In this document: one piece after another, positions 40,744-58,997 of the stretch
Position numbering within the stretch: position 1 is the stretch's first letter
Layout of the letters: each line of letters opens with the position of its first letter
NCBI GenBank assembly: GCA_946412015.1
Contig: CAMKGA010000003.1
Span: 12,932 to 76,931, forward strand
Reading direction: 5' to 3'
From: an uncultured Bacillales bacterium
GTDB lineage: Bacteria > Bacillota_I > Bacilli_A > RF39 > UBA660
Length of the DNA stretch: 64,000 nucleotides
Notes under the pieces: generated by a model
Told to the model about the DNA's origin: nothing
What the model saw: the letters and a program-made list of their open reading frames with translations, nothing else
The model's database searches: none
Position numbers and translations under genes: made by a program

Positions 40744-40756
40744 TCATTACCTCCTC

Positions 40757-40785: not shown

Positions 40786-40796
40786 AGTTTTTATAT

Positions 40797-41066: not shown

Positions 41067-41144
41067 AATAATCTCCTTTCTTCTTAATAAGCTTAAACCT
41101 AGTATAATGCGGAGTACATCAAACCAAGATTAAGTAGCAAATAT

Positions 41145-41173
41145 AATATACTATAAATTTAATTATTTTGCAA
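41145..41173 (-). promoter_or_regulatory. sigma-A-type promoter of rpsO
   Basis: Minus strand TTGCAA (41168-41173), 17 nt spacer, TATATT (41145-41150), about 75 nt upstream of the rpsO ATG. Confidence 0.55.
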
Positions 41174-41181
41174 GCATTTTT

Positions 41182-41277
41182 TTAACTTTCTATATCTAAA
41201 CTATCTAAATCAAAATATTCATTTAATTCTTCATTTACATCATTCTTTGTTTTCTCATCATTTGTCTTATCGTGCAT
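41182..41277 (-). CDS. possible 31-aa acidic micro-ORF
   Basis: AGGTGAATT-ATG. Translates to MHDKTNDEKTKNDVNEELNEYFDLDSLDIES. No homology recognised and it could be non-coding. Confidence 0.25.
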   Translation of the reverse strand: MHDKTNDEKTKNDVNEELNEYFDLDSLDIES

Positions 41278-41319
41278 AATTCACCTACTTTCAAAACCTT
41301 ATTTCAACCTATAAAATTT

Positions 41320-41898
41320 TTAATTACTTATTTGTAATAGTACTTGATGATGAACACTTGCGCTTCCTTTTTTTATGTATTTAATATCCTCCGCACCACC
41401 TATGATTAGTGCTGGGGTGAAGAAAAATATTTCATTATATTCTAAAGAGCCCAACTGGCTTACTGCAACATTATATAAGTTTTCTCTTAGGACATTCTTT
41501 TTTATTTCACTATCAATAATATAATCATTAAAAAAATCTTGGTATGAATAAGCACACACATCTATTTGTCTATAATGAATATCTAATAATGATATATCAT
41601 TTTCATTATCTTCCAGCTTTCTATAATAAAATATATCTCCAAAAGCACTCATCATTATCGGTATCTTATTAAAATCTTTTTCTCCTAACCAAGTGTATAA
41701 ACTATTCATATAATCTCTTGGATCAACAATTTTAATAATTCCATTACCATAGTTTCCGAATCCATAATTTTCCCATAGATATACTATTTCTTTAGGAAGC
41801 ATTTTTTTTGCAAATTCTAATATTTCATTATCTGGTTTTTTTAAATTATCTCCTGGTTTGTAATTTTCAATAAACTTTTTAACTAAATCTATATTCAT
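41320..41898 (-). CDS. GAD-like + DUF1851 (Tdi1-like) polymorphic-toxin immunity-type protein
   Basis: YLWENYGFGNYGNGIIKIVDPRDY...IPIMMSAFGDIFYYRK, with a C-terminal region FFTPALIIGGAEDIKYIKKGS, as in T6SS/Tdi1-type immunity proteins. Confidence 0.7.
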   Translation of the reverse strand: MNIDLVKKFIENYKPGDNLKKPDNEILEFAKKMLPKEIVYLWENYGFGNYGNGIIKIVDPRDYMNSLYTWLGEKDFNKIPIMMSAFGDIFYYRKLEDNENDISLLDIHYRQIDVCAYSYQDFFNDYIIDSEIKKNVLRENLYNVAVSQLGSLEYNEIFFFTPALIIGGAEDIKYIKKGSASVHHQVLLQISN

Positions 41899-41908
41899 AA
41901 TTCCTCCA

Positions 41909-42790
41909 TTAACTTTTATGCATATCTAAAAACGACTGTTTATGAAGTTCAAAAAGATTTTCATCTAAATTAACCATCTCTATACTAGTACCTTGTATTG
42001 CAAAATAATAAATTTTATCCATTTTTTTTATTTTAAATAATCCCTCATAGCCATGGCCTTCAATCAAATAAAGATATCCATATTCACAGCCTATACCATT
42101 ATAATCAGATATAATATTATTTGATACTAACAAATTAATTGCCATATTAGCAAATTTCTCTTTTTCCTGATTATTATTAATTAAATTTTGTTCCTGCCTT
42201 ATATTATTATTTACTTGTTCAGAATTAGTTACTACTTGCTGATTATTATTTAAAGCCTGTCCATTATTTACACCTTGTTCTATTTTACCGTTTTTACATT
42301 TATCCATAAATCTAGAAAAATTTCCTTCTTGATATGGAATTGATTTTTCAACTACACGAGCTAATTGATGTAAAACCATACCATCTTTTAGTTTAATTTT
42401 TACCTTTTTAGTCTTCTTATTTAAGAAACTAAAATTCTTAATAATAATTGAATCAATATTTTCATTTGCAACAAAAACAAATCTATCCAATAGTGGTTCC
42501 ATATTATCAATTTTAAGTGTTAATTGAATTTTCTTACTCTTTAATGGTATTATACCTAATCCCGTTTCTGTTAGATTAATAAGCATACCATCAAAACCTT
42601 GTATACCTTCAAGCATACCATTTGAAAATGAAGCTGCTGCACCAACTACTCCACCAACTGCGCCTAGTGCTCCATATTTAAATCCCTCTCTATTAGTATT
42701 TTTAAATGTTACAAAAATACAATTTTCATTTCCTATACAATCTAAACTTTTAAATATCTCCATTGCTCCTTCAAGCGTTTTAAAATTCAT
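41909..42790 (-). CDS. hypothetical protein (immunity-island member)
   Basis: 293-aa ORF with Gly-rich patch YGALGAVGGVVGAAASF and an N/Q-rich linker. No family recognised. Confidence 0.6.
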   Translation of the reverse strand: MNFKTLEGAMEIFKSLDCIGNENCIFVTFKNTNREGFKYGALGAVGGVVGAAASFSNGMLEGIQGFDGMLINLTETGLGIIPLKSKKIQLTLKIDNMEPLLDRFVFVANENIDSIIIKNFSFLNKKTKKVKIKLKDGMVLHQLARVVEKSIPYQEGNFSRFMDKCKNGKIEQGVNNGQALNNNQQVVTNSEQVNNNIRQEQNLINNNQEKEKFANMAINLLVSNNIISDYNGIGCEYGYLYLIEGHGYEGLFKIKKMDKIYYFAIQGTSIEMVNLDENLFELHKQSFLDMHKS

Positions 42791-42806
42791 AATTATCCTA
42801 CCTTTT

Positions 42807-43301
42807 CTAAAAAGCTATATCTTTATAACCTATTTTTTTAATTTCTTCATTAATTATTTGTACACCTATACCATTATCATCTATATCTTCTCCATATTTT
42901 TTACTAAATGTAAGATACACACATCTACCTGAATATACATCATCCATCATACTTGCATAAGGAATAATAATTCCATCTAATTCAATTTGTTTTTCCATTT
43001 CACTTGTAGTATTAATCTCTGGCCACCATCTATCAAACTCTTCTTTATCATCTGGCCCATAAGAACCTTTTTCTTCATCATTATAATAATCCAAAACTTT
43101 TTCGATAACATCGAGTTGTATTTTATCCCAATTTTCAATAAGTTTATTATAACTTTCATACTGTATATCATCTATCTTATCATCTTCAGTCTGAATAATT
43201 AAAATTGGCTTTACAGTTGTTCCTAAAAAATCAACTACAATTTCTCCTTGAAATCCTTCATCTTCAACATATTCTAATTTATTTAAATCTATTTCACTCA
43301 T
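42807..43301 (-). CDS. hypothetical acidic protein (immunity-island member)
   Basis: 164-aa ORF: FQGEIVVDFLG...YESYNKLIENWDKIQ...WWPEINT. Resembles small immunity-type domains, but the family is not confidently recalled. Confidence 0.55.
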   Translation of the reverse strand: MSEIDLNKLEYVEDEGFQGEIVVDFLGTTVKPILIIQTEDDKIDDIQYESYNKLIENWDKIQLDVIEKVLDYYNDEEKGSYGPDDKEEFDRWWPEINTTSEMEKQIELDGIIIPYASMMDDVYSGRCVYLTFSKKYGEDIDDNGIGVQIINEEIKKIGYKDIAF

Positions 43302-43330
43302 TTTTTTTCACCTTTATTTTACATAAACAC

Positions 43331-43918
43331 TTATCTATTCTGCATTGATTTAAAGTTTATGTTAAATCTTATTAATTCATCTATTGGAACTATTTTTCTA
43401 TCTCTTTTTTCTATATCATAACTTGATTGTAATAATGGATAAAAATGATATCCTTCTGTTAGTTTTAAACTCTTACAATCTTCTTTCCAATTATTCCATC
43501 TATATAATTCATAAAATTTACTAACATCATCTATTTTATTAATTAACCAATCTATAAATTGTGTATAATATACTTCTAAATTCTCCCATTCATTAGTATC
43601 TGGAGCAAAATAATATACATAACCATCTTTTAATCCAAACAAGCCACCTAATATATCTTCTCCAATTAATATATCAACACTTTTTGAACTATTATAGTTA
43701 TCATTTTTTAAAGTAACATTTAACTCTCCACATCCATACAATCTAATCCAATTATCTACTACTATTCCACCACATCTTATAAATTGTTCATAAAAGAATT
43801 TGTCTTTATATTGTGAATATTTTTTTTCAAATTCCTCTTTTACTTTATTATCTACATTTTCAATTATAAATATATTATCTTTATTTTTAATATCTTCAAA
43901 AAATAAATCCGTTTTCAT
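43331..43918 (-). CDS. DUF2625-family protein (immunity-island member)
   Basis: GGIVVDNWIRLYGCG...ILGGLFGLKDGYVYYFAPDTNEWENLEVYYTQFIDWL...FYELYRWNNW...YHFYPLL matches my memory of the DUF2625 consensus (GWLRILGSG...VYYFAPDTLEWE...). Confidence 0.75.
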   Translation of the reverse strand: MKTDLFFEDIKNKDNIFIIENVDNKVKEEFEKKYSQYKDKFFYEQFIRCGGIVVDNWIRLYGCGELNVTLKNDNYNSSKSVDILIGEDILGGLFGLKDGYVYYFAPDTNEWENLEVYYTQFIDWLINKIDDVSKFYELYRWNNWKEDCKSLKLTEGYHFYPLLQSSYDIEKRDRKIVPIDELIRFNINFKSMQNR

Positions 43919-43970
43919 GTATCCACCTTCTATTACAAACTATATTTATTATAATTCATTATTCTCCAAT

Positions 43971-44309
43971 TTATTTCATTTTAATAATTTCAAATTCTAT
44001 CCTTATAGGAAATTTATTATTTTTTATCCATTCTGAATATTTTTCTACAAAACTATAGAATTCTTGCTTTGGTTTGTTTGCTAAATTTATTTTGATCATA
44101 AATTCAGAATATTCTTTATTATTTGTAGCTTGTTTATATCCACCGTTCATTATATATGTTACATAGTTATTTAGTTTTTCTTGTAACAAATATAAATGTT
44201 CTTCTATGTGATGGTCCCATTGTACAGCATCACTGATACCTAAACATAATAAATTAGTATTATCTTTAAATGTTGTTAATAAGTCAACTTTATTCACATC
44301 TTGTAACAT
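43971..44309 (-). CDS. small immunity-type protein sharing an N-terminal module with 45849-46799 and pseudogene 44683-44963
   Basis: VDLLTTFKDNTNLLCLGISDAVQWDHHIEEHLYLLQEKLNNYVTYI parallels IDIAYTEDNKYILAIFDHLEWNFATRQEHAYILQDKINDYLDYI. Confidence 0.65.
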   Translation of the reverse strand: MLQDVNKVDLLTTFKDNTNLLCLGISDAVQWDHHIEEHLYLLQEKLNNYVTYIMNGGYKQATNNKEYSEFMIKINLANKPKQEFYSFVEKYSEWIKNNKFPIRIEFEIIKMK

Positions 44310-44640
44310 TATTCATGCCTCCTCTGACATAAAAATTCATATGCATATTCTTCAATACTTTCAATTAAATTATCATTTTCATCGAATAATTCATATTGAA
44401 TTTGTACATCACCTAATGATTTTTCTTCATCTGATTCTAATAATACTGTATAAAACTGTTTCATTAATAACTGAATCAATTAATTCTTTAGCTTCATCAG
44501 TTGAAATACCTTTAGAAACTAATTTTTTATTTGTTCTCCTACATATGTTTCTTTGACTTTGTCAAAATATATTTTTTGCATATTTTCTTTAGATAGCATT
44601 TTTTTGCAAATTCTTCAGCAGTCATATATTTCCTATAATT
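44310..44640 (-). pseudogene. decayed ORF (multiple frameshifts)
   Basis: Minus-strand fragments lie in different frames: MQKIYFDKVKETYVGEQIKN*, then VSKGISTDEAKELIDSVINETVLYSIIRIR*, then QFYTVLLESDEEKSLGDVQIQYELFDENDNLIESIEEYAYEFLCQRRHE*. No single frame is open. Confidence 0.5.
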
Positions 44641-44682
44641 AATCTATATTCATTATTTTATTGTTCCATAGTCAACCACTAT

Positions 44683-44963
44683 TTAATATCTTTTTACATT
44701 ATCATCATATTTATATAACATCCATGCCATATTATAACCATATTCCTTAAGCAATTCTTTAAACTTTTTCAAATACTTTTCATCTAACTGTCCAGAATAT
44801 AGATATCCAACATAACTATCTATTTTTGCAGTTAAAATTTTTCAATGCTCTTCTAAAAAATCTTACTCCCAATTTAAATGATCTAATATTTCTAGAACTA
44901 TTTCATTATCTTCAATATACATTAAATCTATTAATCTATTTTATCTAATTGATCAACTGCCAT
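44683..44963 (-). pseudogene. pseudogene of the DHL(E/N)W-module immunity-type family (1 frameshift + in-frame TAA and TGA)
   Basis: MAVDQLDKID, a frameshift, then LIDLMYIEDNEIVLEILDHLNWE*DFLEEH*KILTAKIDSYVGYLYSGQLDEKYLKKFKELLKEYGYNMAWMLYKYDDNVKRY*. Length is 281 nt, not a multiple of 3. Confidence 0.65.
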
Positions 44964-44977
44964 AATAACTATCCTTT

Positions 44978-45637
44978 CTAAAATACTGACTTTCTATTGT
45001 AATTTGTTATATCACTACCAATTTTCTCATACAGTGATTTAACATCAATATTTTTATCCTTTACAGCTAATAATTCATCATTTGTAACCCCAATAAATTC
45101 TACAAATATTAATTTACCATTTGGAGTATCTATTGGATTAAAATCAGTATCTGGTATTGTTATAAAACCTGTGATATTAGACTTCATTTTTGCATCAATT
45201 CCTTGAGTTTGCCCAGTGTATAAAAATTCATAAGGCTTAAATATTTCTCCTTTTGTAAAAGTAAGTCTCGCAATTGATTGCAAAATATTACAAATGCATT
45301 TTATTTCATCCTCTTCATTTTCATAATTATCTTTCTTAAGTTTAAAAGTAAATTCCATACCATAACCACTTATATCTTTATTTTCACTTTCTTTTTCATA
45401 CAATTCAGAAAGACCATATGTTACAAAATGAAAGTAATCTCCACCATCATAAATACTTATTCCATCTAACGGATCATTACCACCAAAATTCCACTTTATT
45501 AATGTTCCAAAGTGTTGTGGATTTTGACCTTTATATCTTCTTTCACATTCTTTAGTAATTGCATCCCAACCTAACATATTATTTTCATTTACCTCTTTAT
45601 TATTTTTATCTTTTTTAAATTTATCAAATATTCCCAT
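44978..45637 (-). CDS. SUFU-like (suppressor-of-fused family) immunity-type protein
   Basis: GWDAITKECERRYKGQNPQHFGTLIKWNFGGNDPLDGISIYDGGDYFHFVTYGLSELYEKESENKDISGYGMEFTFKL is the bacterial SUFU-domain consensus as I recall it. Confidence 0.8.
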   Translation of the reverse strand: MGIFDKFKKDKNNKEVNENNMLGWDAITKECERRYKGQNPQHFGTLIKWNFGGNDPLDGISIYDGGDYFHFVTYGLSELYEKESENKDISGYGMEFTFKLKKDNYENEEDEIKCICNILQSIARLTFTKGEIFKPYEFLYTGQTQGIDAKMKSNITGFITIPDTDFNPIDTPNGKLIFVEFIGVTNDELLAVKDKNIDVKSLYEKIGSDITNYNRKSVF

Positions 45638-45669
45638 ATTAATATTTCTCCAATCTTAATCAATTGTTT

Positions 45670-45848
45670 CTATTTTTTCCAATGATTATTAATTATTTCA
45701 ATAAGTTCTATTACTTGTTATAGTTTTAATTCCTTAAATTAGGACATTATCTATAGCATTTGGATAGTCAAATGATTCTTTACCTTCTGTATATAATAAT
45801 CTATTATCATCTATTAAATAAATTTATAACTCATAAACTTCTCCACTA
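45670..45848 (-). pseudogene. degraded 3' fragment of a paralog of gene 47608-48699
   Basis: Ends with IELIEIINNHWKK* (the intact gene ends KLIEIINNHWKNREK*). Upstream frames are broken by stops. The DNA at 45669-45710 matches 47615-47655. Confidence 0.55.
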
Positions 45849-46799
45849 CTACAGACTATATTTACTACTTACACTTATCTTTTTACTTTCTCTTGAATAA
45901 ACGAATATATCTTTGCAAAATATAAGATTAGAATTTTCTTTTATGTTCCTGTTAAAATTATCTCTTGATTTATTAATCATTTTATTTCTTAATTTTTTAT
46001 CGTTTAATTTTGTAAAGAATACTAAATCTTTAGTAGGGATACTAATGATAATGTCATCATCTAATTGTTTTGCCAAATCATCCCATATTCCTAATAAGAT
46101 GCTTTCCGCTTCAAAATCTCCACCAGCCATGATTCCGAAAATTCCTGGCTCATTTAATTCAATCCATCTAAATTGTATATTTTTAATTAAATTATTGAAT
46201 GCAATTTCTTGTAATTTTTCTGGTGTCATATTTTTTGGCATCATATCATATGTAAAATACCCAAATTTATCCCCTAAATCTACCATTATTAACCCTATAA
46301 AACTATCCCAATATCTAAATAAAACTAAATTATCTGGATAATCTGGTTGGTTATTATCTATATTCATTAATGAAACTTCTTTCAATGGTTTCTTTGAATA
46401 ATTCTTTTTTATTCTTGGATAGATTTTATCAGGTTCAAAGACATAATCATCACTAAAACCATCATCAAATGGTCCTTCATCTTCTGAGTGTGTCCATTCG
46501 ATATCACAAATATCATCTTTTTCTTTTATAAATTTTTTTATTCTTTCAAGAAATTCAATACAATACTTACTATATGGATATTTTGCAATTATTCTTATAA
46601 CTGGACGTAAACCTGGCTTTGCTTTCTCGGCTTGCTCACTTGTAATATAATCTAGATAATCATTTATTTTATCTTGTAAAATATATGCATGTTCTTGTCT
46701 TGTAGCAAAGTTCCATTCTAAATGATCAAATATCGCTAATATATATTTATTATCTTCTGTATATGCAATATCAATTTTATTTCTATCTACTACTGTCAT
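45849..46799 (-). CDS. immunity-island protein (316 aa) with DHLEW N-terminal module
   Basis: MTVVDRNKIDIAYTEDNKYILAIFDHLEWNFATRQEHAYILQDKINDYLDYI. The C-terminal domain was not recognised. Confidence 0.65.
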   Translation of the reverse strand: MTVVDRNKIDIAYTEDNKYILAIFDHLEWNFATRQEHAYILQDKINDYLDYITSEQAEKAKPGLRPVIRIIAKYPYSKYCIEFLERIKKFIKEKDDICDIEWTHSEDEGPFDDGFSDDYVFEPDKIYPRIKKNYSKKPLKEVSLMNIDNNQPDYPDNLVLFRYWDSFIGLIMVDLGDKFGYFTYDMMPKNMTPEKLQEIAFNNLIKNIQFRWIELNEPGIFGIMAGGDFEAESILLGIWDDLAKQLDDDIIISIPTKDLVFFTKLNDKKLRNKMINKSRDNFNRNIKENSNLIFCKDIFVYSRESKKISVSSKYSL

Positions 46800-46865
46800 T
46801 ATTTCTCCCCTCTTAATTATTTTTCTCTATTTTTCCAATGATTATTAATAATTTCAATAAGTTCT
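46760..46865. repeat. ~105-bp duplicated gene junction, copy 1
   Basis: TATATGCAATATCAATTTTATTTCTATCTACTACTGTCATTATTTCTCCCCTCTTAATTATTTTTCTCTATTTTTCCAATGATTATTAATAATTTCAATAAGTTCT. Differs at 3 positions from 47551-47655. Confidence 0.85.
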
Positions 46866-46900
46866 AGTTTTAATTTTTTAATCGAAGACATTATCATAGA
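46817..46900 (-). pseudogene. 3' fragment of a paralog of gene 47608-48699
   Basis: Reads ...SSIKKLKLELIEIINNHWKNREK* with a stop (TGA) about 30 codons upstream. Only the C-terminal ~12 aa match the intact gene. Confidence 0.55.
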
Positions 46901-46938
46901 ATAATCATATTGTCATTTTTTTATTTTATCCAACATAT

Positions 46939-47481
46939 TTATTCTACTTTCACAGCATTATTAATATCTAATGTTATTGTCCAATAAACATCCATATCAA
47001 TTTCTTCTAAATTATCAAGTTCATCTTTACCTCCTAAAGATAAAGGAACTTTAAATCCAACACATTCACCATACTTTATTATTTTATTGTTATTCTTCTC
47101 TAACCATTGATGAAAATAATTTGATGAAAATATACCGTCAGTATTATTTACAATTTCTTCATGAAATTTAACAATATCCATATCAGTAGCGTAACATTCG
47201 TGTTCTTCAGGATCAAACATAATTATCATCTTTGAATTGTTTTCAATAGCATAAATTTTTCCTATCCAATCATATGAAAATACTGAAAAACCACCTTTAT
47301 AATTTGAAAAATACTCACCGACAATACCGTTCCATTTTTCAATATCTTCTTTCTTAAATATGGTATATAATCCATTTAAGAAAGATTTCCCTGATGTATT
47401 TTCAAGAAATTCATCAATAGAATTACATTTTACACCATTATCATAATTAACATATTTTAAAAATTTATCAAACAAATTCAT
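46939..47481 (-). CDS. DUF1851 (Tdi1 C-terminal-like) immunity-type protein
   Basis: GGFSVFSYDWIGKIYAIE...FDPEEHECYATDMDIVKFHEE...GFKVPLSLGGKDELDNLEEIDMDVYW, typical of DUF1851. Confidence 0.75.
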   Translation of the reverse strand: MNLFDKFLKYVNYDNGVKCNSIDEFLENTSGKSFLNGLYTIFKKEDIEKWNGIVGEYFSNYKGGFSVFSYDWIGKIYAIENNSKMIIMFDPEEHECYATDMDIVKFHEEIVNNTDGIFSSNYFHQWLEKNNNKIIKYGECVGFKVPLSLGGKDELDNLEEIDMDVYWTITLDINNAVKVE

Positions 47482-47590
47482 TCCTCCTATTATATTGTAT
47501 CTTGCTTTTAATTATTTTACTTGTTGTAAAATGGATACAAGTACTTTTTTTATATGCAATATCATTTTTATTTCTATCTACTACTGTCAT
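47468..47590 (-). pseudogene. 5' fragment (first ~13 codons) of a paralog of gene 45849-46799, reading through into unrelated sequence
   Basis: MTVVDRNKNDIAYKKSTCIHFTT... compared with MTVVDRNKIDIAYTEDN... in the intact gene. Overlaps the RBS and start of 46939-47481. Confidence 0.6.
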
Positions 47591-47655
47591 TATTTCTCCC
47601 CTCTTAATTATTTTTCTCTATTTTTCCAATGATTATTAATTATTTCAATAAGTTT
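47551..47655. repeat. ~105-bp duplicated gene junction, copy 2
   Basis: Near-identical to 46760-46865. Spans the 3' end of 47608-48699, the intergenic RBS and the first codons of an MTVVDRNK... gene. Confidence 0.85.
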
Positions 47656-48699
47656 TATTGCTTGATTCTTATAATTATCCTTTACCTCTTCAAATTCACT
47701 AAATGTATTACCGCTATTTCTAGAAGTAATTTTATCCTTTTCATATCCCCCTGATACACCTAGCATGTACTCTTTAACTCTAAAACTATTACTTTTAAAC
47801 CTGTAAATATAATAGATAAGCCCATCATACTCTAATTTATCAATAAGTTCTATATTATCTGGTTTATTTCCTAATTCAGTTGGATACATAAGCCAATCAA
47901 TCATTTGTGATTTTGCAATATCTTCCTGTGTTATTTTATCAAGGGATATTTTATTAAGTACATTTGCATTTTCAAATATAGAAATTACTCTATATAAGTT
48001 TTTTTCACTTTTTAAAAGTTCATCTATTTCATTTGAATTAACGTCTAAATTATTAACTAATTTGTATTTTGCAATAAATAATTTACATTCAAAGTTTAAA
48101 TTAAGTTTCGATAATTCTTTTATTAGTTCATCTATTCTTTTATCATCCAAATGTATTGATAAATCTATAATTATTTCTAAATCTGCATAAACTGAATCAT
48201 CTATTGCTTCATTATTCTTTATATAATTAATAATATCTGTTAATTTTCTAACTGTATTATTAGCTATATTATCTTTCTCATCATCATTAAACATTTTAAA
48301 CTCAGGATCATTATTTAATATAATAAGTGCCATACAATTAGCAATACCATTGTCAACATGTTCATATACTGTTATTAATGTGTGTTTTAATGTTTTAAAT
48401 TTTTCTTTAAACAGAGGATACTCTTCTAAATTAGGTATAAATGGTAAATATTCACAAGTAGATTCAATTAACATACAACATAGCATAAACTTAAATTTAT
48501 CATCAGATTTATATAATTCTTCAATTACATATGGTAACTTTTCAAAATCAAGATCATCTATTTCATCACTAAAAATATCATCTATCCATAAATCTAAGTT
48601 TTCAGGACTAATATCAATATTGTCAACTATATTTTTTAATTCTTCTTGTGATTCAATATTCAAGTTATTAATCTCTTCCCTTAATTTATCAAAATTCAT
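47608..48699 (-). CDS. immunity-island protein (363 aa), family not recognised
   Basis: ORF with the start moved to the ATG at 48699, immediately after the upstream stop (the track start is a GTG inside GAGGTGG). The C-terminal tail IEIINNHWKNREK recurs in two remnants. Confidence 0.65.
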   Translation of the reverse strand: MNFDKLREEINNLNIESQEELKNIVDNIDISPENLDLWIDDIFSDEIDDLDFEKLPYVIEELYKSDDKFKFMLCCMLIESTCEYLPFIPNLEEYPLFKEKFKTLKHTLITVYEHVDNGIANCMALIILNNDPEFKMFNDDEKDNIANNTVRKLTDIINYIKNNEAIDDSVYADLEIIIDLSIHLDDKRIDELIKELSKLNLNFECKLFIAKYKLVNNLDVNSNEIDELLKSEKNLYRVISIFENANVLNKISLDKITQEDIAKSQMIDWLMYPTELGNKPDNIELIDKLEYDGLIYYIYRFKSNSFRVKEYMLGVSGGYEKDKITSRNSGNTFSEFEEVKDNYKNQAIKLIEIINNHWKNREK

Positions 48700-48701
48700 A
48701 A

Positions 48702-49493
48702 TTAGTTGTTCCACCTCTCAACAAATATTTCTTTATCCTTATTATCTATTTCAAACACATTACTAGATGTCCTAATAATCGTTGTTCCAATATCATATTC
48801 TAAATATTCTTCAATACTAGGCTCTAATAAAATAACATCATATAATCTTATTAAGGCAATGTTATCACTATTGTTTATATAATCATCAGATTCATCACCT
48901 GCAACAAATGACCATCCACTATCTTCATTATTTAATGGTTCTTCTCTATGCATATAACCAATCTTATAGTTATCATCAATAATTCTTTTTGATACATATG
49001 CCATCTTATTTAATAACTCTTTACGCTTCTTTATATTATCATAATAAGATTCGTGACTTTTAAATTCAGAAATCATTTCATTAGTTATTTCAATATCTGT
49101 ATCTATTTTTGATATGTCACCATCAAATATGCGTTTATCATCTGCTTCATTTTTAAGTGCTATAGCTAATTTAAATAATTCATCAGAATTGACATCAATA
49201 GTGTCTTTTATTTCTTTAAAAAGATGTTTACCTCTTTCATCATAAATATATAAATATATGCTACAGTTACTATGAATAATTAATTTCACTGCTCCTAAAT
49301 TATCTTTATCATTATAAAACACCATAAAATTAGATAACTTCTGATTTACATACCAATCAAATTCAGTACCATTGTTACCATTCATATAGTATATTGCACC
49401 ATTATCTTCTAAATCCTTATTTTTTACATTAGGAAGATATTGGTTTATACCGTTATTAATTATTTCTTTTATTTTAAGTATTACTTTATTCAT
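48702..49493 (-). CDS. protein with C-terminal DUF2185/Imm33-like immunity domain
   Basis: YVSKRIIDDNYKIGYMHREEPLNNEDSGWSFVAGDESDDYINNSDNIALIRLYDVILLEPSIEEYL. Confidence 0.7.
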   Translation of the reverse strand: MNKVILKIKEIINNGINQYLPNVKNKDLEDNGAIYYMNGNNGTEFDWYVNQKLSNFMVFYNDKDNLGAVKLIIHSNCSIYLYIYDERGKHLFKEIKDTIDVNSDELFKLAIALKNEADDKRIFDGDISKIDTDIEITNEMISEFKSHESYYDNIKKRKELLNKMAYVSKRIIDDNYKIGYMHREEPLNNEDSGWSFVAGDESDDYINNSDNIALIRLYDVILLEPSIEEYLEYDIGTTIIRTSSNVFEIDNKDKEIFVERWNN

Positions 49494-49513
49494 TTAGCCT
49501 CCCAATTAATATA

Positions 49514-49918
49514 CTACTTATACATAAATAAATTATTAATTATTTCTTCAAATTGACAAGTAGCCATTTTATCAAAATAAAGTACATAACCATTAAATTT
49601 TATTTTACCTTCATTAAATACTACTACTTTATTTAAATTAATTCTAAAATAAGTATTCTTTATAAATAAGAACTTATTTTCTTCTTTTCTACAGTCAACA
49701 ATGTCATCTAAAATATTTATTTTAAAAGTAACAGAACCATTATCTATAAAAATGTTTTTATTAGTCATAGTTAGTTTTGCATCTATTCCAAGATTTTGTT
49801 GTTTTTCTGTACCAAACGTTTTTAATTTAGATGTAAATACTACTTTTTCATCTTCTGTAATCTTAGCATCATATATATTATCTACTTCATTTAATTTATT
49901 AAGATATTCAATATTCAT
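49514..49918 (-). CDS. hypothetical protein (immunity-island member)
   Basis: 134-aa ORF. No motif recognised. Confidence 0.55.
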   Translation of the reverse strand: MNIEYLNKLNEVDNIYDAKITEDEKVVFTSKLKTFGTEKQQNLGIDAKLTMTNKNIFIDNGSVTFKINILDDIVDCRKEENKFLFIKNTYFRINLNKVVVFNEGKIKFNGYVLYFDKMATCQFEEIINNLFMYK

Positions 49919-49954
49919 ATTTTGTTTCTCCTTTTTTTCATTTATAAAACTATT

Positions 49955-50554
49955 TTAGCACCAATCAAATTGAAATCCATATTTTTCTTCTATATCGTTT
50001 ACAATTTCATCATCTTGAGCTGACAAAAATATATCATTTTCAGATACAAACCCTATTGCTTTATCAGTATAACAATAAACACAATAATTACCATCAATTT
50101 CTGACATTTTAATAAAATTTTTGTTTAATATATCTAGGCATGATGTATCAGTTTGTACAATACAGTTTAAAAAGCCTGTCCCTTGTATAGCTAACAAATA
50201 TAAAATAAAATCTTTAATATCTAAATTAATCTCTTCCTTATAGTCATCAGTAAAATAAACTATCTTTTGATTTTTTACATTTAATCCATAACTACAAACT
50301 CCTTGATTTTCAACAGCAAGTGTTAATATATCATTTTTAACTTCTAACTTTTCTGGTGAAATAATGCTATACAAACATTCTAAAAAATCTGTTTTGTTCC
50401 CAAACATTATATAAAACACTTGTAATGGTTCTGGTATACTAATATTTAATTTTTTCTCAATTGAAACTATTTTATCTTTTTTTAAAATATTTTTATTATC
50501 TTGTTCAAAATAAATTTTACTTATTAATTCTAATTTTTCTTTAAAATTTTTCAT
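49955..50554 (-). CDS. SMI1/KNR4 (SUKH superfamily) immunity-type protein
   Basis: VSIEKKLNISIPEPLQVFYIMFGN... then NQGVCSYGLNVKNQKIVYF, the SUKH-type pattern. Confidence 0.7.
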   Translation of the reverse strand: MKNFKEKLELISKIYFEQDNKNILKKDKIVSIEKKLNISIPEPLQVFYIMFGNKTDFLECLYSIISPEKLEVKNDILTLAVENQGVCSYGLNVKNQKIVYFTDDYKEEINLDIKDFILYLLAIQGTGFLNCIVQTDTSCLDILNKNFIKMSEIDGNYCVYCYTDKAIGFVSENDIFLSAQDDEIVNDIEEKYGFQFDWC

Positions 50555-50583
50555 ATCATTATCTTTCCTATCTAATAATTTTA

Positions 50584-51231
50584 CTATTTATTCTTTTTAC
50601 TATATTTATTAAATTCATTAATAAAATCTTTAGGGCTGCGATTATTAACTGACAACAATTCAAAATTAGTAATATCTCTAATTTTAATACCATCAATTTC
50701 ATAATTCAAAAATTGTTCTAAACTCATAGCATCAGAAAAATTAATATAACAGTCTCCAATTTCTGCCTTTTCGTCTAAATCAGGAATTTTTTTTAATTGT
50801 GCTTCAAAATAGTAAATCTTACTATTAATTCTTACATACATTGCCATAAACCCGGCGAATGTTAAACTAAAGTCAAAAACTTCTTTAGGCATATTAACAT
50901 TATCATATTCAAAATGTTTTTGCTCACTTAAATATTTATATATTTTTTTAGCATAAAACAAATTTCGAAATGTCAAAAAAACTGTCGCTAAAAAGATTAA
51001 AACCATAATACCCACTAATATTATGGATAATCTTGCTAGGAATCCCAAAATCCAATCTAATTGTTTTACATCATTCTTCCACCTTACAATTGAAAAGAAA
51101 AAGAAAACTAATATTAAAATTAATATTTTATAAAAATCTTTTAAAAGATAATTTACATGCTTTTTTTTAATTTTTTTCTTATCTATTTGATATTCCTGCT
51201 GTAAATTAATCAAATATTCATCTTTATTCAT
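50584..51231 (-). CDS. hypothetical two-TM membrane protein (immunity-island member)
   Basis: Start set at the ATG at 51231 (AAGGAGATAATGAT-ATG). TM segments ILILILVFFFFSIV and LARLSIILVGIMVLIFLATVFLTF. Confidence 0.6.
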   Translation of the reverse strand: MNKDEYLINLQQEYQIDKKKIKKKHVNYLLKDFYKILILILVFFFFSIVRWKNDVKQLDWILGFLARLSIILVGIMVLIFLATVFLTFRNLFYAKKIYKYLSEQKHFEYDNVNMPKEVFDFSLTFAGFMAMYVRINSKIYYFEAQLKKIPDLDEKAEIGDCYINFSDAMSLEQFLNYEIDGIKIRDITNFELLSVNNRSPKDFINEFNKYSKKNK

Positions 51232-51244
51232 ATCATTATCTCCT

Positions 51245-52120
51245 TTATCTATTTCCTGACGCATACTCTAAAGTATTAACATCAATAACTTCTCGAATAG
51301 GTTGTATTAGCGAATCTTCATATTGTAACTTCCATTTTGTAATATTATTACTATCTTTATTTTTCAATCCATCAATTGTATCCCCATTTTTTATTGGATT
51401 ATCATTATCAAATATATATTTAAGAAAACTATATGCATGATTTATAATTTGATCTGGATTAATGGCATGAAAATGATACTGTAAATCGGGCATAAAAAGT
51501 GTACTCATACCTAATGTATCAACCAGCATATCATTTGTTCCAGTAATATTAAAGTATCTCATATTAACAGCATAATGAATAAAGCGATGTTCTTTAGATA
51601 TCTTACAATTTACTATATCTTCCCTTTTTAACATTTTTTTTGATGTATCAAATACTACTGCTTTACATGTTGGATATAATTCAACTAAAGCTTCAATATA
51701 TTCAACTAACATGTTAGCTCTAACTTTATAATTTAAAAAGTCAGCTAAAAAGTCTGTTGCAACTACTTGATAATTACAACTATCTAAGATATCTATTCCA
51801 TTTTCAACATCCCATAATTGTGTTTTCGCAATATCGTCCATAATTGGTTCGTTAATTTCTACACACTCTGATATTAAAAGATGTACGGGAAGATCAATTT
51901 CTTTTTCATTCTTAATTAGATATTTTTTAGATACAAAATCTACCACTTTTTTATCATAATGCATACATTCAACATTTTCAAGGTGCTTATTCATTATTTC
52001 TATCATATTATCTCGATTTGGCATATCACAAGGCTTACCCATAAGTAAACGAATAACAAATACAGATCCTGGTCTTTCTCCTAAATCACTTAAATCCTGT
52101 TTTAATTCTTTTTCTTTCAA
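51245..52120 (-). CDS. immunity-island protein, possibly DUF4261-like
   Basis: TLGMSTLFMPDLQYHFHAINPDQIINHAYSFLKYIFDNDNPIKNGDTIDG. The family name is recalled only tentatively. Confidence 0.5.
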   Translation of the reverse strand: MKEKELKQDLSDLGERPGSVFVIRLLMGKPCDMPNRDNMIEIMNKHLENVECMHYDKKVVDFVSKKYLIKNEKEIDLPVHLLISECVEINEPIMDDIAKTQLWDVENGIDILDSCNYQVVATDFLADFLNYKVRANMLVEYIEALVELYPTCKAVVFDTSKKMLKREDIVNCKISKEHRFIHYAVNMRYFNITGTNDMLVDTLGMSTLFMPDLQYHFHAINPDQIINHAYSFLKYIFDNDNPIKNGDTIDGLKNKDSNNITKWKLQYEDSLIQPIREVIDVNTLEYASGNR

Positions 52121-52131
52121 AATGTCATCAC

Positions 52132-52527
52132 CTAATTTTTTAATATTTCTTCTAATGTAGTATCTTTATCATTTTTTAAATCATAAAAACCTGTAAAATT
52201 GCCTTTTTTATCATACATCCAACATAAATCTGTACCATATGGTGCATCAAATATTTTAAGTATCAATGGATTAATTTTATTAATCGATGTTGCAGATAAA
52301 ATCATAAAGTTATCTGGATTATTAACATATTCCTGTGTATCATCACATGAATATATTGTCCAACCATTTAAGCTCTCATTTGAACTTTTCTCTCTATACG
52401 TATATCTTATAGGCCTATTTGCACATACATTCTTTGATACCATAAATCCTCCATAAGCACTATCATTTATATCATCATTTACATAATTATTTATTGCATT
52501 TTGTTTTGCTTTTTTATTAAAAAACAT
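52132..52527 (-). CDS. DUF2185/Imm33-like immunity-type protein
   Basis: VSKNVCANRPIRYTYREKSSNESLNGWTIYSCDDTQEYVNNPDNFMILSATSINKINPLILKIF parallels the C-terminus of 48702-49493. Confidence 0.7.
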   Translation of the reverse strand: MFFNKKAKQNAINNYVNDDINDSAYGGFMVSKNVCANRPIRYTYREKSSNESLNGWTIYSCDDTQEYVNNPDNFMILSATSINKINPLILKIFDAPYGTDLCWMYDKKGNFTGFYDLKNDKDTTLEEILKN

Positions 52528-52590
52528 ATTTTTTACCTTCTTTCATTATTAATCTTTAAAATATTCATCCATTATAATCGTCTCCTTAAA

Positions 52591-52917
52591 CTATTTTTCA
52601 AACGGACAAACTATAGTTTGATTATTAACTGTATCATTATACTCAGCTTTCCAATAATGTCTATCATTTATATTTCTATAAACTACACTTTCTAAATCAT
52701 TTTTTATTTCTGCTTTAAATGGATACTCTAAAAAAATAAAAATTGAATCATCAGGTATATTTGTAAATCTACCCTTATATATTTCTTTGATTTTATTACC
52801 ACATTTTAATTCATTATCTAATATTTCTTTCATAGTATTGCTTAATTCATTAATAAGTGAATAGTCCAGTTCCTTAGAAAGAATATCTTTAGTATTCTTT
52901 TTTTTAAATAACCACAT
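52591..52917 (-). CDS. hypothetical protein (first gene of immunity island)
   Basis: 108-aa ORF starting 12 nt after the SEDS gene stop. No motif recognised. Confidence 0.5.
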   Translation of the reverse strand: MWLFKKKNTKDILSKELDYSLINELSNTMKEILDNELKCGNKIKEIYKGRFTNIPDDSIFIFLEYPFKAEIKNDLESVVYRNINDRHYWKAEYNDTVNNQTIVCPFEK

Positions 52918-52929
52918 ATCTATTATAAC

Positions 52930-54063
52930 CTACTTTCCAGTTTCAATACTTACTCTTTGTACTAGTGCAATAGATATTAATAATGATAATGTAAAACTAC
53001 CTCCATAGGATAAAAATGGAAGTGGTACACCAGTTAAAGGAATAAGGCCAAATAACCCTCCTAAGTTGATTGCAATATGCATAAATATGTATGTTGCAAC
53101 TCCAATACAAGTATACTTATTTTTTATAGAGTTAGTCATTCTAGAAAGTCTAAGTATTCTATATATAAGTATAATATAGTTTAAAAATATAATGCTTCCC
53201 CCAATAAGACCGTTCTCTTCAGAAATTATAGAAAATACCATATCAGTATGAGGTTCTGGTATATAAGAATACTTTTGTGTACTCTTTCCTATTCCAAGCC
53301 CAAATACATTACCTTTATTAATAGCTATAAAAGCATTACAAATCTGATATCCTGTTGTAGAATAATTAGCACATGGATTACGATAATCAAATCTTGATAA
53401 CTGAGCTTTAGTAAGTGGATTCCCTTTAATAATAAATATTCCAAGAATTCCTATAAACATTAATATAATACCAATAACAATTGTTTTAAACTTATCATTT
53501 GATGTAATTGGACTAGTTAAATATATTACAAAATATATAACTGCTAATATTGCTGCCGTTCCTAAATCCTTTTGCAAACATACAAGTAGTATTAATGGAA
53601 TACCAATTAATAATATAATAATTAAGTACTTTAAGTGACTTACTTTTTCACTAACTAAAACTTTATTAAACTTCTCAAGCATAAATGATAATGTAACTAT
53701 CATAATTGGCTTTGCCAGTTCACTAGGCTGCAAATTAAAAAAGCCAAGCTGAATCCAGTTTGCTGCACCTCTAGTAGTTCCACCTTGAAATATTAAAAAA
53801 GCATTTAAAAATAGTATTCCAAAAAATAGAATTGGTATAAAATTATAATACCGTTTTAAAGGGATATTAATTACTATTACACTTGCAACAAACGATATAA
53901 CAAGAATAGCTAAATGCCTATAAAAATAATAATATAATGACTTGTCTAAATGAATAACTGCTTCTCTACTTGATGCAGTAACAATATTAAAAAGTCCATA
54001 CAAACTAAGTAAAATAGTAATAAATAATATAACTTTATCCATATCTTTTAGTGTCTTTCTCAT
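52930..54063 (-). CDS. SEDS-family peptidoglycan polymerase (FtsW/RodA/SpoVE)
   Basis: About 10 TM segments. Motifs include GAANWIQLGFFNLQPSELAKP, YIPEPHTDMVFSIISEENG and LPFLSYGGS. Confidence 0.9.
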   Translation of the reverse strand: MRKTLKDMDKVILFITILLSLYGLFNIVTASSREAVIHLDKSLYYYFYRHLAILVISFVASVIVINIPLKRYYNFIPILFFGILFLNAFLIFQGGTTRGAANWIQLGFFNLQPSELAKPIMIVTLSFMLEKFNKVLVSEKVSHLKYLIIILLIGIPLILLVCLQKDLGTAAILAVIYFVIYLTSPITSNDKFKTIVIGIILMFIGILGIFIIKGNPLTKAQLSRFDYRNPCANYSTTGYQICNAFIAINKGNVFGLGIGKSTQKYSYIPEPHTDMVFSIISEENGLIGGSIIFLNYIILIYRILRLSRMTNSIKNKYTCIGVATYIFMHIAINLGGLFGLIPLTGVPLPFLSYGGSFTLSLLISIALVQRVSIETGK

Positions 54064-54185
54064 TTTACCACCTATTTTAATTTTAACATATATTATTTTG
54101 TTTTACAACAAATCAAAATAGGTATTTTTGATGAGCAAATTAATAATTATGTAATACAATATATTGAATAGATAGGAGGTATTAT

Positions 54186-54356
54186 ATGTATTACTATGGT
54201 GGATACCAAGGCTATGGTGGAGCACCAGGATATGGTTGTTGTAACCAAGGAGGATACTCTACAGGTTACGGTGCAGCTATAATCCTAGTATTATTTATTC
54301 TTTTAGTAATTGTAATTGGTGCACGCACTTGGGGCGGAAATAACTTTAATAATTAA
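54186..54356 (+). CDS. 56-aa YjcZ-like Gly/Tyr-rich small membrane (sporulation-type) protein
   Basis: AGGAGGTATTAT-ATG. Translates to MYYYGGYQGYGGAPGYGCCNQGGYSTGYGAAIILVLFILLVIVIGARTWGGNNFNN. Below the ORF-track cutoff. Confidence 0.7.
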   Translation: MYYYGGYQGYGGAPGYGCCNQGGYSTGYGAAIILVLFILLVIVIGARTWGGNNFNN

Positions 54357-54360: not shown

Positions 54361-54390
54361 AAAACACTATCATTTTTTTGATAGTGTTTT
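54361..54390. terminator. bidirectional terminator (perfect 12-bp stem)
   Basis: AAAACACTATCA-TTTTTT-TGATAGTGTTTT, flanked by A- and T-runs. Lies between the convergent 54186-54356 (+) and 54389-54685 (-) genes. Confidence 0.8.
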
Positions 54391-54685
54391 AATTATTGTT
54401 TACCTTGTATTTTTTCAATTCATCATCAACCATTTTGATATAACTATTATAATCATCTGTCATATATCCAATATGATATATTTTTTTTACAACTTCTTTA
54501 TTAAATACAATTGTCTCTTGATGTGATGAAAATCCATAAGGATAAACTACAGCATAGTAATCATAAGGTTTTTTTGTTTTACTATTTATAGGAGAATATC
54601 CAATAATCATAAATTTGTTTTCATTGAACCTAATTGAAACAACAGAGCCAACCGGTAACCAATCGTTTTCTAAATCAAAACTCAT
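54389..54685 (-). CDS. DUF4176-family protein (paralog 3)
   Basis: DWLPVGSVVSIRFNENKFMIIGYSPINSKTKKPYDYYAVVYPYGFSSHQETIVFNKEVVKKIYHIGY. Start set at the ATG at 54685 (GGAGGAATTG-ATG). Confidence 0.75.
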   Translation of the reverse strand: MSFDLENDWLPVGSVVSIRFNENKFMIIGYSPINSKTKKPYDYYAVVYPYGFSSHQETIVFNKEVVKKIYHIGYMTDDYNSYIKMVDDELKKYKVNNN

Positions 54686-54932
54686 CAATTCCTCCATTTT
54701 TAACAATTTCTTTTATTTCTGAAAATTCTACAATTAACTCTTTTGCAAGATTATCAGATTTTACTCTTTCAAATATCCACCCATCATCTTTTCTAATTAA
54801 CTTACAAAAATATCCACATTCACTTTCTTCATCTACAAGAAAAGCGTACCAATCTCCATTAAACATTTTTACATCATAAACATATAAATCGTTTTCACCA
54901 TTACTTATATATTGCCCTTTTTCTATATTCAT
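54675..54932 (-). CDS. hypothetical 85-aa cytoplasmic protein in toxin-like operon
   Basis: ORF overlapping both neighbours. MNIEKGQYISNGENDLYVYDVKMFNGDWYAFLVDEE... No motif recognised. Confidence 0.6.
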   Translation of the reverse strand: MNIEKGQYISNGENDLYVYDVKMFNGDWYAFLVDEESECGYFCKLIRKDDGWIFERVKSDNLAKELIVEFSEIKEIVKNGGIDEF

Positions 54933-55312
54933 TTCTTTTTTCCACCTACTTCATAATCATCATCATAATCATCATCATAATCATCATCATAATCATCATA
55001 GTCTTTATTTTCCTTTTTATGAAATATATCTGGCTTCACTGCCTTAAAAAATGATGCAAATCCAACTACTCCAAGTGCTAATAATGGACCGTCTAAAGCA
55101 ATTTCTGCAAAAATATCATTTCTAGGTATTTCAAAAATTGCAGGAATAGATCCATATACAATCATAGAAGCACAACATATAAGAAATCTTTTTATGTTCT
55201 TCCCAAAATCATTTTTTTTTGCTTTCTTTTTAAAATCTTTTATTTGTTTATCTGTCATATAAAATGTATCTATAACCTCGTGATTATTTAAATTCATTTT
55301 CCCATTTTTCAT
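54929..55312 (-). CDS. two-TM membrane protein with poly-(Asp/Tyr) acidic C-terminal tail; candidate immunity protein
   Basis: TM segments FLICCASMIVYGSIPAIF and LLALGVVGFASFF. Tail is KDYDDYDDDYDDDYDDDYEVGGKKK. Confidence 0.7.
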   Translation of the reverse strand: MKNGKMNLNNHEVIDTFYMTDKQIKDFKKKAKKNDFGKNIKRFLICCASMIVYGSIPAIFEIPRNDIFAEIALDGPLLALGVVGFASFFKAVKPDIFHKKENKDYDDYDDDYDDDYDDDYEVGGKKK

Positions 55313-55581
55313 TGTTTTTTCTCCTTTTTAGCTACAACTTCTAACATTTCTTTATATTTTTTATCCTTATATCCATTATAATAAATCAATTTTATATCAT
55401 CTGAATTAAAAACATAATTTTTTTCTTTGGTTAAAAAACCTTCCGGATATGTATATCCAATGTAATCATATCTTTCCCCTGGCTTACTTGGATCAGTTGC
55501 ACCATACCCTATTATAAAAAACTTTTTATCTGTACCATTTAATTTTACAACAGTTCCTATTGGTAAATATTTATCATTCAT
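55309..55581 (-). CDS. DUF4176-family protein (paralog 2)
   Basis: KYLPIGTVVKLNGTDKKFFIIGYGATDPSKPGERYDYIGYTYPEGFLTKEKNYVFNSDDIKLIYYNGY. The ATG at 55581 is preferred over the GTG at 55593. Confidence 0.75.
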   Translation of the reverse strand: MNDKYLPIGTVVKLNGTDKKFFIIGYGATDPSKPGERYDYIGYTYPEGFLTKEKNYVFNSDDIKLIYYNGYKDKKYKEMLEVVAKKEKKQ

Positions 55582-55861
55582 TTTTTTCACCACTCTTTTT
55601 CATAGCCCATAAAACATCTTCATAATATTCTTCTAATTCCTTATCAGCAAATCCCAAATGATATACTTTTTCAATATTATCATTATTAAACATAAATAAC
55701 TCATCAGAATTTAAATAGCCATAAGGATAAAGGCAGGCACTATATTCATATATTTTTTTATTTTCACTTGAAATTTGATTAACACCAATTATCATAAGTT
55801 TCCTCGTTCCTTTTTTCAAAGAAACTAAACTACCTATTGGTAATAAAGAAATATTTTTCAT
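55574..55861 (-). CDS. DUF4176-family protein (paralog 1)
   Basis: LLPIGSLVSLKKGTRKLMIIGVNQISSENKKIYEYSACLYPYGYLNSDELFMFNNDNIEKVYHLGF. Confidence 0.75.
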   Translation of the reverse strand: MKNISLLPIGSLVSLKKGTRKLMIIGVNQISSENKKIYEYSACLYPYGYLNSDELFMFNNDNIEKVYHLGFADKELEEYYEDVLWAMKKSGEKNE

Positions 55862-57362: not shown

Positions 57363-57391
57363 AGTATATCACAGCCTGATAACATTGTCAA
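57363..57391 (-). promoter_or_regulatory. near-consensus sigma-A promoter of the toxin-like operon
   Basis: Minus strand TTGACA (57386-57391), 17 nt spacer, TATACT (57363-57368), about 45 nt upstream of the ATG at 57317. Confidence 0.7.
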
Positions 57392-57400
57392 CAAAGATTT

Positions 57401-57436
57401 ACATATTGGATAGTGTTTACATATTGGATAGTGTTT
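57401..57436. repeat. perfect 18-bp tandem direct repeat (x2) immediately upstream of the -35 box; candidate activator/operator site
   Basis: ACATATTGGATAGTGTTT ACATATTGGATAGTGTTT. On the minus strand this reads AAACACTATCCAATATGT twice. Confidence 0.85.
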
Positions 57437-57581
57437 ACACAAATAATTGATTTTTTAAATCAAGATTTGCTCAATATAAATTTATAAATATTTGACATAT
57501 ATCTATTAATATTATAAGAATTATAACCATTATTGATTTTTATTTTTTTTAATTGTATGTTATAATGTTTTCGGTGGTTTT

Positions 57582-58986: not shown

Positions 58987-58997
58987 GGATAGTGTTT
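58987..58997 (-). promoter_or_regulatory. single copy of the AAACACTATCC motif 15 nt upstream of the -35 box
   Basis: The plus strand reads GGATAGTGTTT. The same 11-mer occurs twice at 57408-57418 and 57426-57436, the nearer copy 16 nt upstream of the other TTGACA. Confidence 0.5.

Follow-up and report, generated by a model that had tools for sequence, protein, structure and literature searches.

Six genes in series on the minus strand, from position 57317 to 54389 of a 64,000-nucleotide stretch of DNA from an uncultured Bacillales bacterium (GenBank contig CAMKGA010000003.1; the whole stretch is hereafter called the window), encode a 478-aa effector candidate, three small DUF4176 proteins designated D1, D2 and D3, a 127-aa membrane protein designated TM127 and an 85-aa protein designated s85. 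The gene order is effector-A-B-TM127-s85-C, in which A, B and C are the classes of D1, D2 and D3. Comparison with homologous loci indicated that the three DUF4176 genes are anciently diverged orthologous classes, neither copies nor leftovers. [quoted passage not shown]

Three DUF4176 classes and one effector candidate

A preliminary description of this DNA, made from its letters alone, had named the three open reading frames (ORFs) as DUF4176 paralogues. In a profile search all three scored far above the 25-bit cut-off of PF13780 (Table 1), and the match spanned nearly all of each protein. D1 also matched the solved structure of a small DUF4176 protein (9DCS, E 3.4e-9), with weak matches to 9MNO and 9DCR, and all three proteins have the form of the published small subfamily, 70-130 aa without an N-lobe (PMC12478183). 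These matches confirmed D1, D2 and D3, at the level of sequence, as true DUF4176/PF13780 proteins of the small subfamily. A mechanical ORF list began D2 at GTG 55593 (55309-55593) and gave D3 as 54389-54706; the ATG starts were preferred, since a GGAGG-like site lies upstream of each one and the orthologues are in agreement. The paralogues had been called only loosely similar, and their mutual identity was indeed 35-40%. The LP(I/V)GS motif said to be common to all three holds in general but not for D2, which reads LPIGTVV.

Profile hidden Markov models were built from the operon proteins and run on all retrieved loci. Two of these loci, L003 (a Joint Genome Institute metagenome contig, of which L004 and L010 are the same sequence) and L005, carry an effector homologue, a DUF4176 gene, a gene for a 120-aa protein, two DUF4176 genes, an 84-aa gene and a further DUF4176 gene, in that order; the L003 effector homologue is 36% identical to the 478-aa protein. 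D1 was 58% identical to L003_2, D2 was 48% identical to each of L003_3 and L003_1, and D3 was 51% identical to L003_4. These orthologue identities (48-58%) exceed the identity of each protein to its own paralogues. A fourth lineage, L032, was retrieved by way of s85 homologues. It reads essC, WXG100 (PF06013, E 2e-9), a 182-aa helical gene, a 510-aa effector homologue (E 5e-32), two DUF4176 genes, a TM127-like gene (TM131), an s85-like gene and three more DUF4176 genes.

For 34 DUF4176 proteins, a maximum-likelihood tree recovered class A (WIN_D1, L003_2, L005_2 and L032_1) with support of 98/94, class B (WIN_D2, L032_2 and two sub-clades, L003_1/3 plus L005_1/3) with 93/90, and class C (WIN_D3, L003_4, L005_4 and L032_3) with 87/84, the last rising to 100/99 in a tree without L032. 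By this class assignment the window and L032 share the order A-B-TM-s85-C. The 8-nt overlap of A with B and the 11-nt overlap of s85 with C were the same in the window, L003, L005 and L032 (4/4 lineages). First and second DUF4176 genes also grouped by position in the loci with two copies, where the second copies of L006, L012 and L013 formed a clade with support of 99/91. When judged strictly, on four sequences for each class, no position was fixed within a class yet different between classes.

The ratio of nonsynonymous to synonymous substitution rates (dN/dS), computed between L003 and L005 for seven genes, was below 1 throughout: 0.14 for class A, 0.09 for class B, 0.36 for class C, 0.51 for the extra B copy (B'), 0.47 for the 84-aa gene (s84), 0.27 for the membrane protein gene and 0.36 for the effector. 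These values indicated purifying selection, with the lowest ratios in A and B.

The link between the DUF4176 genes and the 478-aa protein family, raised as a question by the preliminary description, proved to be conserved: DUF4176 genes lie directly downstream in 11 of 12 distinct loci that encode the effector C-terminal domain, with 1-5 genes per locus. There is one copy in L009 and L015, at least one in L011 (which is truncated) and two in L006, L012, L013, L017 and L018. The window has three copies, L003 and L005 have four each, and L032 has five. The exception is L007/L008, a contig that is short and has no copy downstream, but a partial DUF4176 gene on the upstream side. Copy number correlated with effector length (Spearman 0.87, n=11), which is only suggestive because the loci are not phylogenetically independent. 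The comparative data come mostly from metagenome contigs, and a scan of genome contigs for effector homologues gave one locus.

Residues 111-240 of the effector candidate are 40% charged, with a mean hydropathy of -1.35. The C-terminal part (about residues 245-446) is beta-rich and rich in Gly and Ala, and ends in a glycine-zipper-like tail; residues 401-478 are hydrophobic and Gly/Ala-rich, with a mean hydropathy of +0.60. Most members of the effector family have an N-terminal helical hairpin of ~100 aa with a Y-x-x-x-D/E-like motif, whereas the subfamily of the window, L003 and L005 is without this hairpin and without Lap-like genes in cis.

The three DUF4176 classes would probably act jointly to hold the membrane-active effector soluble and harmless in the cytoplasm of the producer until export. 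The chaperone activity of A, B and C is predicted by analogy with published DUF4176 proteins. An A:B heterodimer and an s85:C pair may each take a different part of the effector; this arrangement is proposed because DUF4176 proteins are obligate dimers and because the coupled overlaps are identical in every lineage. Candidate binding targets are the charged and probably disordered middle of the effector and its hydrophobic, beta-rich, glycine-zipper end. It is thus plausible, as had been suggested, that the classes are chaperones specific for different effector regions. The TM127 hairpin would protect the membrane from toxin that re-enters.

TM127, s85 and the operon layout

Located between classes B and C are the genes for TM127 and s85. 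Both have orthologues in other loci, and they are genuine genes of the same conserved module. The N-terminus of TM127 is rich in Lys, and its C-terminal tail, an acidic (DDDY)n stretch, is encoded by a tandem repeat. Its relatives are the 120-aa protein of L003 (37% identity) and proteins of L005 (37%), L032, L034 and L035, and it belongs to no Pfam or NCBIfam family. In a metagenomic strain (L039) that is 98.4% identical over 1.76 kb, the main difference is the absence of 24 nt, or two repeat units, such that the protein has 119 rather than 127 aa; the tail therefore varies in length by slippage. TM127 is the top candidate for a membrane immunity protein.

The s85 model (AlphaFold2, AF2; predicted local distance difference test, pLDDT, in Table 1) has five beta strands and two helices, arranged as a small beta-barrel plus two helices. 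Foldseek returned no PDB fold match at E<0.001. No Pfam match was found for s85 or its family, and none of the six operon proteins matched an NCBIfam family. The protein is 46% identical to the 84-aa protein of L003. Its family is rare, with 20 cluster representatives in a profile search of 1.84 billion, and its members have 75-117 aa with one exception of 346 aa. In that exception, P0018, the s85-family part is the C-terminal 64 residues, and the first 280 resemble phage head-morphogenesis proteins (SPP1 gp7 / Mu F-like); it represents a fusion or else an error of gene calling, and is suggestive of a prophage setting.

Of seven distinct loci with an s85-like gene, six (the window, L003, L005, L032, L034 and L035) have it directly upstream of a DUF4176 gene, and the two genes overlap in all four complete loci (the window, L003, L005 and L032). 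In the seventh locus, L036, the s85-like gene follows a small two-helix membrane protein gene and precedes a gene for a 416-aa protein with a glycine-zipper C-terminus. No fusion of s85 to DUF4176 was present in the profile search of 1.84 billion representatives. Several possible relatives of s85 were considered. Descent from a detached N-lobe of the large DUF4176 proteins (Ltc) was rejected, Foldseek having given no match to 9DCR, 9DCT or 9MNO. Kinship with DUF1292 was unsupported, with a weak match in 1 of 20 members, as was kinship with the 75-aa gene that stands ahead of DUF4176 on contig C2 of the host genome (hhalign probability 0.5%). A DUF5085/GyrI-like SHS2 immunity protein was likewise not indicated, there being neither a Pfam match nor a PDB match at E<0.001.

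The gene order in L034 and L035 is WXG-like 207-aa, DUF4176, s85-like, DUF4176, 198-aa, TM113 (TM127-like), a 588-598-aa protein and DUF4176. In L035 the second DUF4176 gene is broken by a stretch of masked or unknown bases. The 588-598-aa protein has no detectable similarity to the effector family, and because TM127-like and s85-like helpers accompany it, these helpers are not tied to one toxin domain.

From its anatomy the cluster is predicted to be one operon, with a single promoter and a single terminator at its ends (Table 1). The five junctions are overlaps or a 19-nt spacer, the latter between the effector and class A genes and containing GGAAGGTG, and no unassigned coding space is left between the operon genes. 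The four coupling overlaps given in the preliminary description were all exact. The gene next upstream of the effector promoter is a divergent def.

Table 1. Positions of the operon genes, their overlaps and the associated sites in the window.
Feature	Position	Strand	Remarks
Effector candidate, 478 aa	55881..57317	-	first gene of the operon
DUF4176 class A (D1), 95 aa	55574..55861	-	ATG at 55861; PF13780 93.7 bits, E 7e-27
DUF4176 class B (D2), 90 aa	55309..55581	-	ATG at 55581; PF13780 78 bits, E 5.8e-22
TM127, 127 aa	54929..55312	-	two-helix membrane hairpin predicted from hydropathy, about residues 43-59 and 67-92
s85, 85 aa	54675..54932	-	acidic, soluble; AF2 pLDDT 83.6
DUF4176 class C (D3), 98 aa	54389..54685	-	ATG at 54685; PF13780 74.6 bits, E 6.7e-21
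A/B overlap	55574-55581	-	8 nt
B/TM127 overlap	55309-55312	-	ATGA, 4 nt
TM127/s85 overlap	54929-54932	-	ATGA, 4 nt
s85/C overlap	54675-54685	-	11 nt
12-nt tandem repeat	54951..54999	-	4.1 copies, 100% matches (Tandem Repeats Finder, TRF); encodes the DDDY tail of TM127
Promoter-like site	57363..57391	-	TTGACA-17-TATACT, TG-extended; 11/12 consensus, top match of the region; putative function
18-bp tandem repeat	57398-57439		just upstream of the promoter-like -35; contains AACACTATC twice
Terminator-like intrinsic hairpin	54361..54390	-	12-bp stem, then T-rich CTTATT; directly 3' of the class C gene
ORF, 56 aa	54186-54356	+	between the operon terminator and the SEDS gene

The arms of the terminator stem are an inverted pair of AACACTATC. 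This 9-mer occurs seven times in the window against 0.63 expected, a count reached by none of 100 shuffles, at 54363-54388, 57409-57435, 58988-58996, 23625 and 29013; the next coiled-coil gene has one copy upstream of its promoter. Such a 9-mer could bind a regulator or mark where the inserted cassette is bounded. The 56-aa ORF has a Gly/Tyr-rich N-terminus and one hydrophobic helix, and is probably a real gene for a small membrane protein because the same frame is kept in the sister species, at the end of locus L037.

Secretion genes and distribution in the family

Five DUF4176 genes are present in the host genome, which spans 1.69 Mb in 57 contigs: the three described here, a fourth on contig C23, where it lies after essC, and a fifth on contig C2. 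EssC on contig C23 scored 967.8 bits with TIGR03928, against a cut-off of 778.4 bits. The operon and essC are on different contigs. The core locus (C23:12881-23935, L001) encodes a YukD-like 85-aa protein, EssC (1525 aa), a 100-aa protein, a 241-aa protein with a weak WXG100 match, a 75-aa protein, a 477-aa protein, DUF4176 and an IS110-like transposase, and as a T7SS (type VII secretion system) locus it looks minimal. The DUF4176 protein encoded there has 167 aa, with a 70-aa Asn/Ser/Asp-rich tail. A second satellite cassette, at C2:32936-35589, encodes a lipase-like protein of 554 aa with a GYSLGG motif, what is probably a lipoprotein (158 aa), a 75-aa protein and a 93-aa DUF4176 protein. 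The 75-aa protein is weakly DUF1292-like (E 8e-4, below the cut-off), and its gene overlaps the start of the DUF4176 gene, as that of s85 does with D3.

The survey covered 201 genomes of the host's bacterial family, from 200 genera. The effector was found only in the genome of the window, DUF4176 in 54 genomes and EssC in 78. DUF4176 and EssC co-occurred strongly: 49 of the 54 genomes with DUF4176 had EssC, compared to 29 of the remaining 147 (odds ratio 40, p 1e-20).

In the sister species (G069) the effector, DUF4176 and EssC are all absent. The contig is broken on both sides of the site expected for the operon, and def there faces a different gene, which bears a signal peptide. In locus L037 (G069:C2), compared with window positions 38323-41285 and 52940-54319, the SEDS gene abuts the equivalent of 41285; an 11.6-kb island of immunity genes (41320-52917) is therefore absent in G069, which confirmed its insertion.

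Adjacent and often overlapping pairs of DUF4176 genes were found in other genera of the family (L040-L044, in G055, G057, G138, G114 and G164). The effector candidates beside them, of 628 aa and over 1076 aa for example, did not match the effector profile, and in G055 the pair lies within the core T7SS locus, between WXG-like genes. Adjacent pairs beside unrelated effectors are common in the family, being present in at least five of the loci examined.

Competing explanations and comparison with known systems

Several observations weigh against a T7SS chaperone and immunity set. As the preliminary description had supposed, the 478-aa protein is not an LXG protein: it has no LXG (PF04740) or WXG100 domain, Pfam gave only noise at E<=1, and there was no NCBIfam match. 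The operon has no Lap-like genes in cis, such that T7SS targeting of this LXG-less effector is putative. The AF2 model of the effector, made from a five-sequence alignment, was uninformative (pLDDT 33). In the host genome EssB/YukC was not found at E<=0.1, and a six-frame scan yielded no WXG100 at E 0.1, only weak WXG-like proteins. The net charges of A and B are not consistently complementary across lineages, so nothing in the sequence specifically supports their heterodimer. The presence of TM127-like and s85-like proteins in L034/L035 would fit general accessory factors better than toxin-specific immunity proteins.

These points bear on the idea that the 478-aa protein belongs to the membrane and inserts itself there or is exported in some other way, with the small genes unrelated to type VII secretion. 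The missing LXG, WXG and Lap features would agree with it, as would the separate contigs of operon and essC and the failure to detect EssB. It is nevertheless very improbable given that the homologous module of L032 lies directly after essC and WXG100, that the L006 effector locus sits among four WXG100 genes, that most members of the effector family have the N-terminal helical hairpin with its Y-x-x-x-D/E-like motif, and that DUF4176 tracks EssC across the family. A common pool of chaperones, in which the paralogues serve effectors encoded elsewhere (for example the 477-aa protein whose gene lies after essC, or the 554-aa lipase-like one of C2) and merely cluster at this site, would be in keeping with at least two other effector candidates in the genome and with the suggestion that one S. 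aureus DUF4176 protein serves several substrates (PMC11322744). We consider it improbable, since both other candidates have an adjacent DUF4176 gene of their own, published chaperones are toxin-specific (PMC12478183; PMC12482557), and classes A, B and C travel with the effector family in the window, L003, L005 and L032 whatever the genomic site.

The preliminary description also offered remnants of swapped effector cassettes, according to which the extra DUF4176 genes, TM127 and s85 would be left from earlier toxin-immunity-DUF4176 modules whose toxins were lost or swapped. Group B Streptococcus (GBS) loci do acquire 2-3 DUF4176 genes through partial modules of an LXG fragment, a membrane protein gene and DUF4176 (10.1101/2023.01.25.525443), the sub-order TM-s85-DUF4176 resembles the published toxin-TM-(hypothetical)-DUF4176, and the locus is accessory, being absent from the sister species and the other surveyed genomes of the family. 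This explanation was rejected as barely credible, because the classes have orthologues in four lineages in conserved order with the same 8-nt and 11-nt overlaps, every gene is under purifying selection, and no toxin fragment fits between the overlapping genes. Cytoplasmic antitoxins are a possible alternative that we hold to be fairly unlikely. Here the DUF4176 paralogues, s85 or both would mainly neutralise the glycine-zipper end, with little role in targeting or export, as the DUF5085 proteins ExiAB and TipE do for EsxX and TelE. No DUF5085 or other soluble immunity family was found in the operon with Pfam or NCBIfam, the effector end is hydrophobic and Gly-rich, ExiAB is a paralogue heterodimer that sequesters a zipper (PMC12744356), and the evolutionary rates of s85 and TM127 are close to that of the effector (dN/dS 0.47 and 0.27 vs 0.36), as is the case for immunity proteins. 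A and B, on the other hand, show much stronger conservation than the effector (92% and 84% vs 62% identity), and published deletions of DUF4176 genes led to loss of toxin rather than self-intoxication (PMC12478183). The antitoxin explanation also overlaps with the favoured reading of a chaperone and immunity set and does not exclude it. A more specific form of that favoured reading, in which a DUF4176 hetero-oligomeric holder (A:B plus s85:C) both neutralises the glycine-zipper toxin and supplies the T7SS recognition signal, in place of LXG, Lap factors and DUF5085, with s85 as a new class of DUF4176 co-chaperone, is doubtful.

Among characterised systems, DUF4176 proteins are dimeric, toxin-specific chaperones; a small one in S. 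intermedius is needed for the stability of TelD, and small forms are proposed to shield membrane-inserting helices (PMC12478183). The TelD/TipD/MQE10_09270 system (S. intermedius GC1825, 9DCS; PMC12478183) resembles the operon in having a small (about 100 aa), dimeric DUF4176 protein, required for toxin stability, downstream of a membrane-acting T7SSb toxin and a membrane immunity gene. It differs in its single DUF4176, its toxin of the LXG kind, which has Lap partners, and its polytopic immunity protein of the DUF443 family, whereas the operon combines three DUF4176 classes with an effector that lacks LXG, a hairpin protein of two helices and an additional partner family of 85 aa. The DUF4176 groups of S. 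suis pair 1:1 with toxin C-terminal (CT) types and bind pre-toxin and toxin parts, and as in the operon the DUF4176 gene is downstream and follows the CT domain whatever the N-terminus (PMC12482557). That system has one DUF4176 group per CT type, while the CT family of the window has one to five in position-specific classes. The large DUF4176 proteins LtcA and LtcB (9DCR, 9DCT, 9MNO; PMC12478183), which bind a disordered amphipathic toxin segment, share the C-lobe fold family; unlike the small forms of the window they have 200-250 aa and an extra N-lobe, and their gene has lap on one side and the LXG gene on the other.

Pairs of soluble paralogues hold the glycine-zipper toxins EsxX and TelE until export, and membrane proteins counteract these toxins (PMC12744356; 10.64898/2026.03.12.711312). 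The seven-protein pre-secretion complex of TelE (S. gallolyticus, 10.64898/2026.03.12.711312) and EsxX-ExiAB/ExiCD (S. aureus, PMC12744356) resemble the plan proposed here, in that a zipper toxin is held by several small soluble partners including a paralogue heterodimer, with membrane proteins in the same operon. They use DUF5085 neutralisers, one DUF4176 (LcpE) or none, and six-helix membrane proteins, whereas multiple DUF4176 proteins and s85 would stand in the neutraliser's place in the operon, with a two-helix membrane protein. LXG modules of GBS (10.1101/2023.01.25.525443) likewise have several DUF4176 genes per locus, with a small TM gene before each, yet in GBS every DUF4176 gene is the last of an LXG module of its own, whether complete or fragmentary, in contrast to the coupled classes with one effector and no toxin fragments seen here. 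Compared with the canonical Lap1-Lap2-LXG-immunity-DUF4176 module, the operon is without LXG/WXG100 and without the two upstream Lap genes. The downstream immunity candidates TM127 and s85 are conserved with the module, and neither matches a known immunity family in Pfam or NCBIfam.

Small DUF4176 chaperones and a membrane-active T7SS effector are thus of already known kinds. In the published DUF4176 and T7SS work that we found, there is no description of one effector with a conserved set of three to five diverged DUF4176 classes in which order and overlaps are fixed, nor of the s85 partner family, the two-helix membrane partner or the absence of LXG and Lap. DUF4176 proteins were shown to be toxin-specific chaperones of Gram-positive type VII secretion only in 2025, and the published picture is of one chaperone per toxin or toxin C-terminal type; here one effector keeps three to five coupled classes. 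Adjacent DUF4176 pairs are common in these Bacillota, which are uncultured and have small genomes, so the one-to-one pairing described for streptococci may be too narrow a rule. The operon offers a compact system in which to ask whether DUF4176 proteins form heterodimers, which toxin segments they shield, and how an effector that lacks LXG is recognised.

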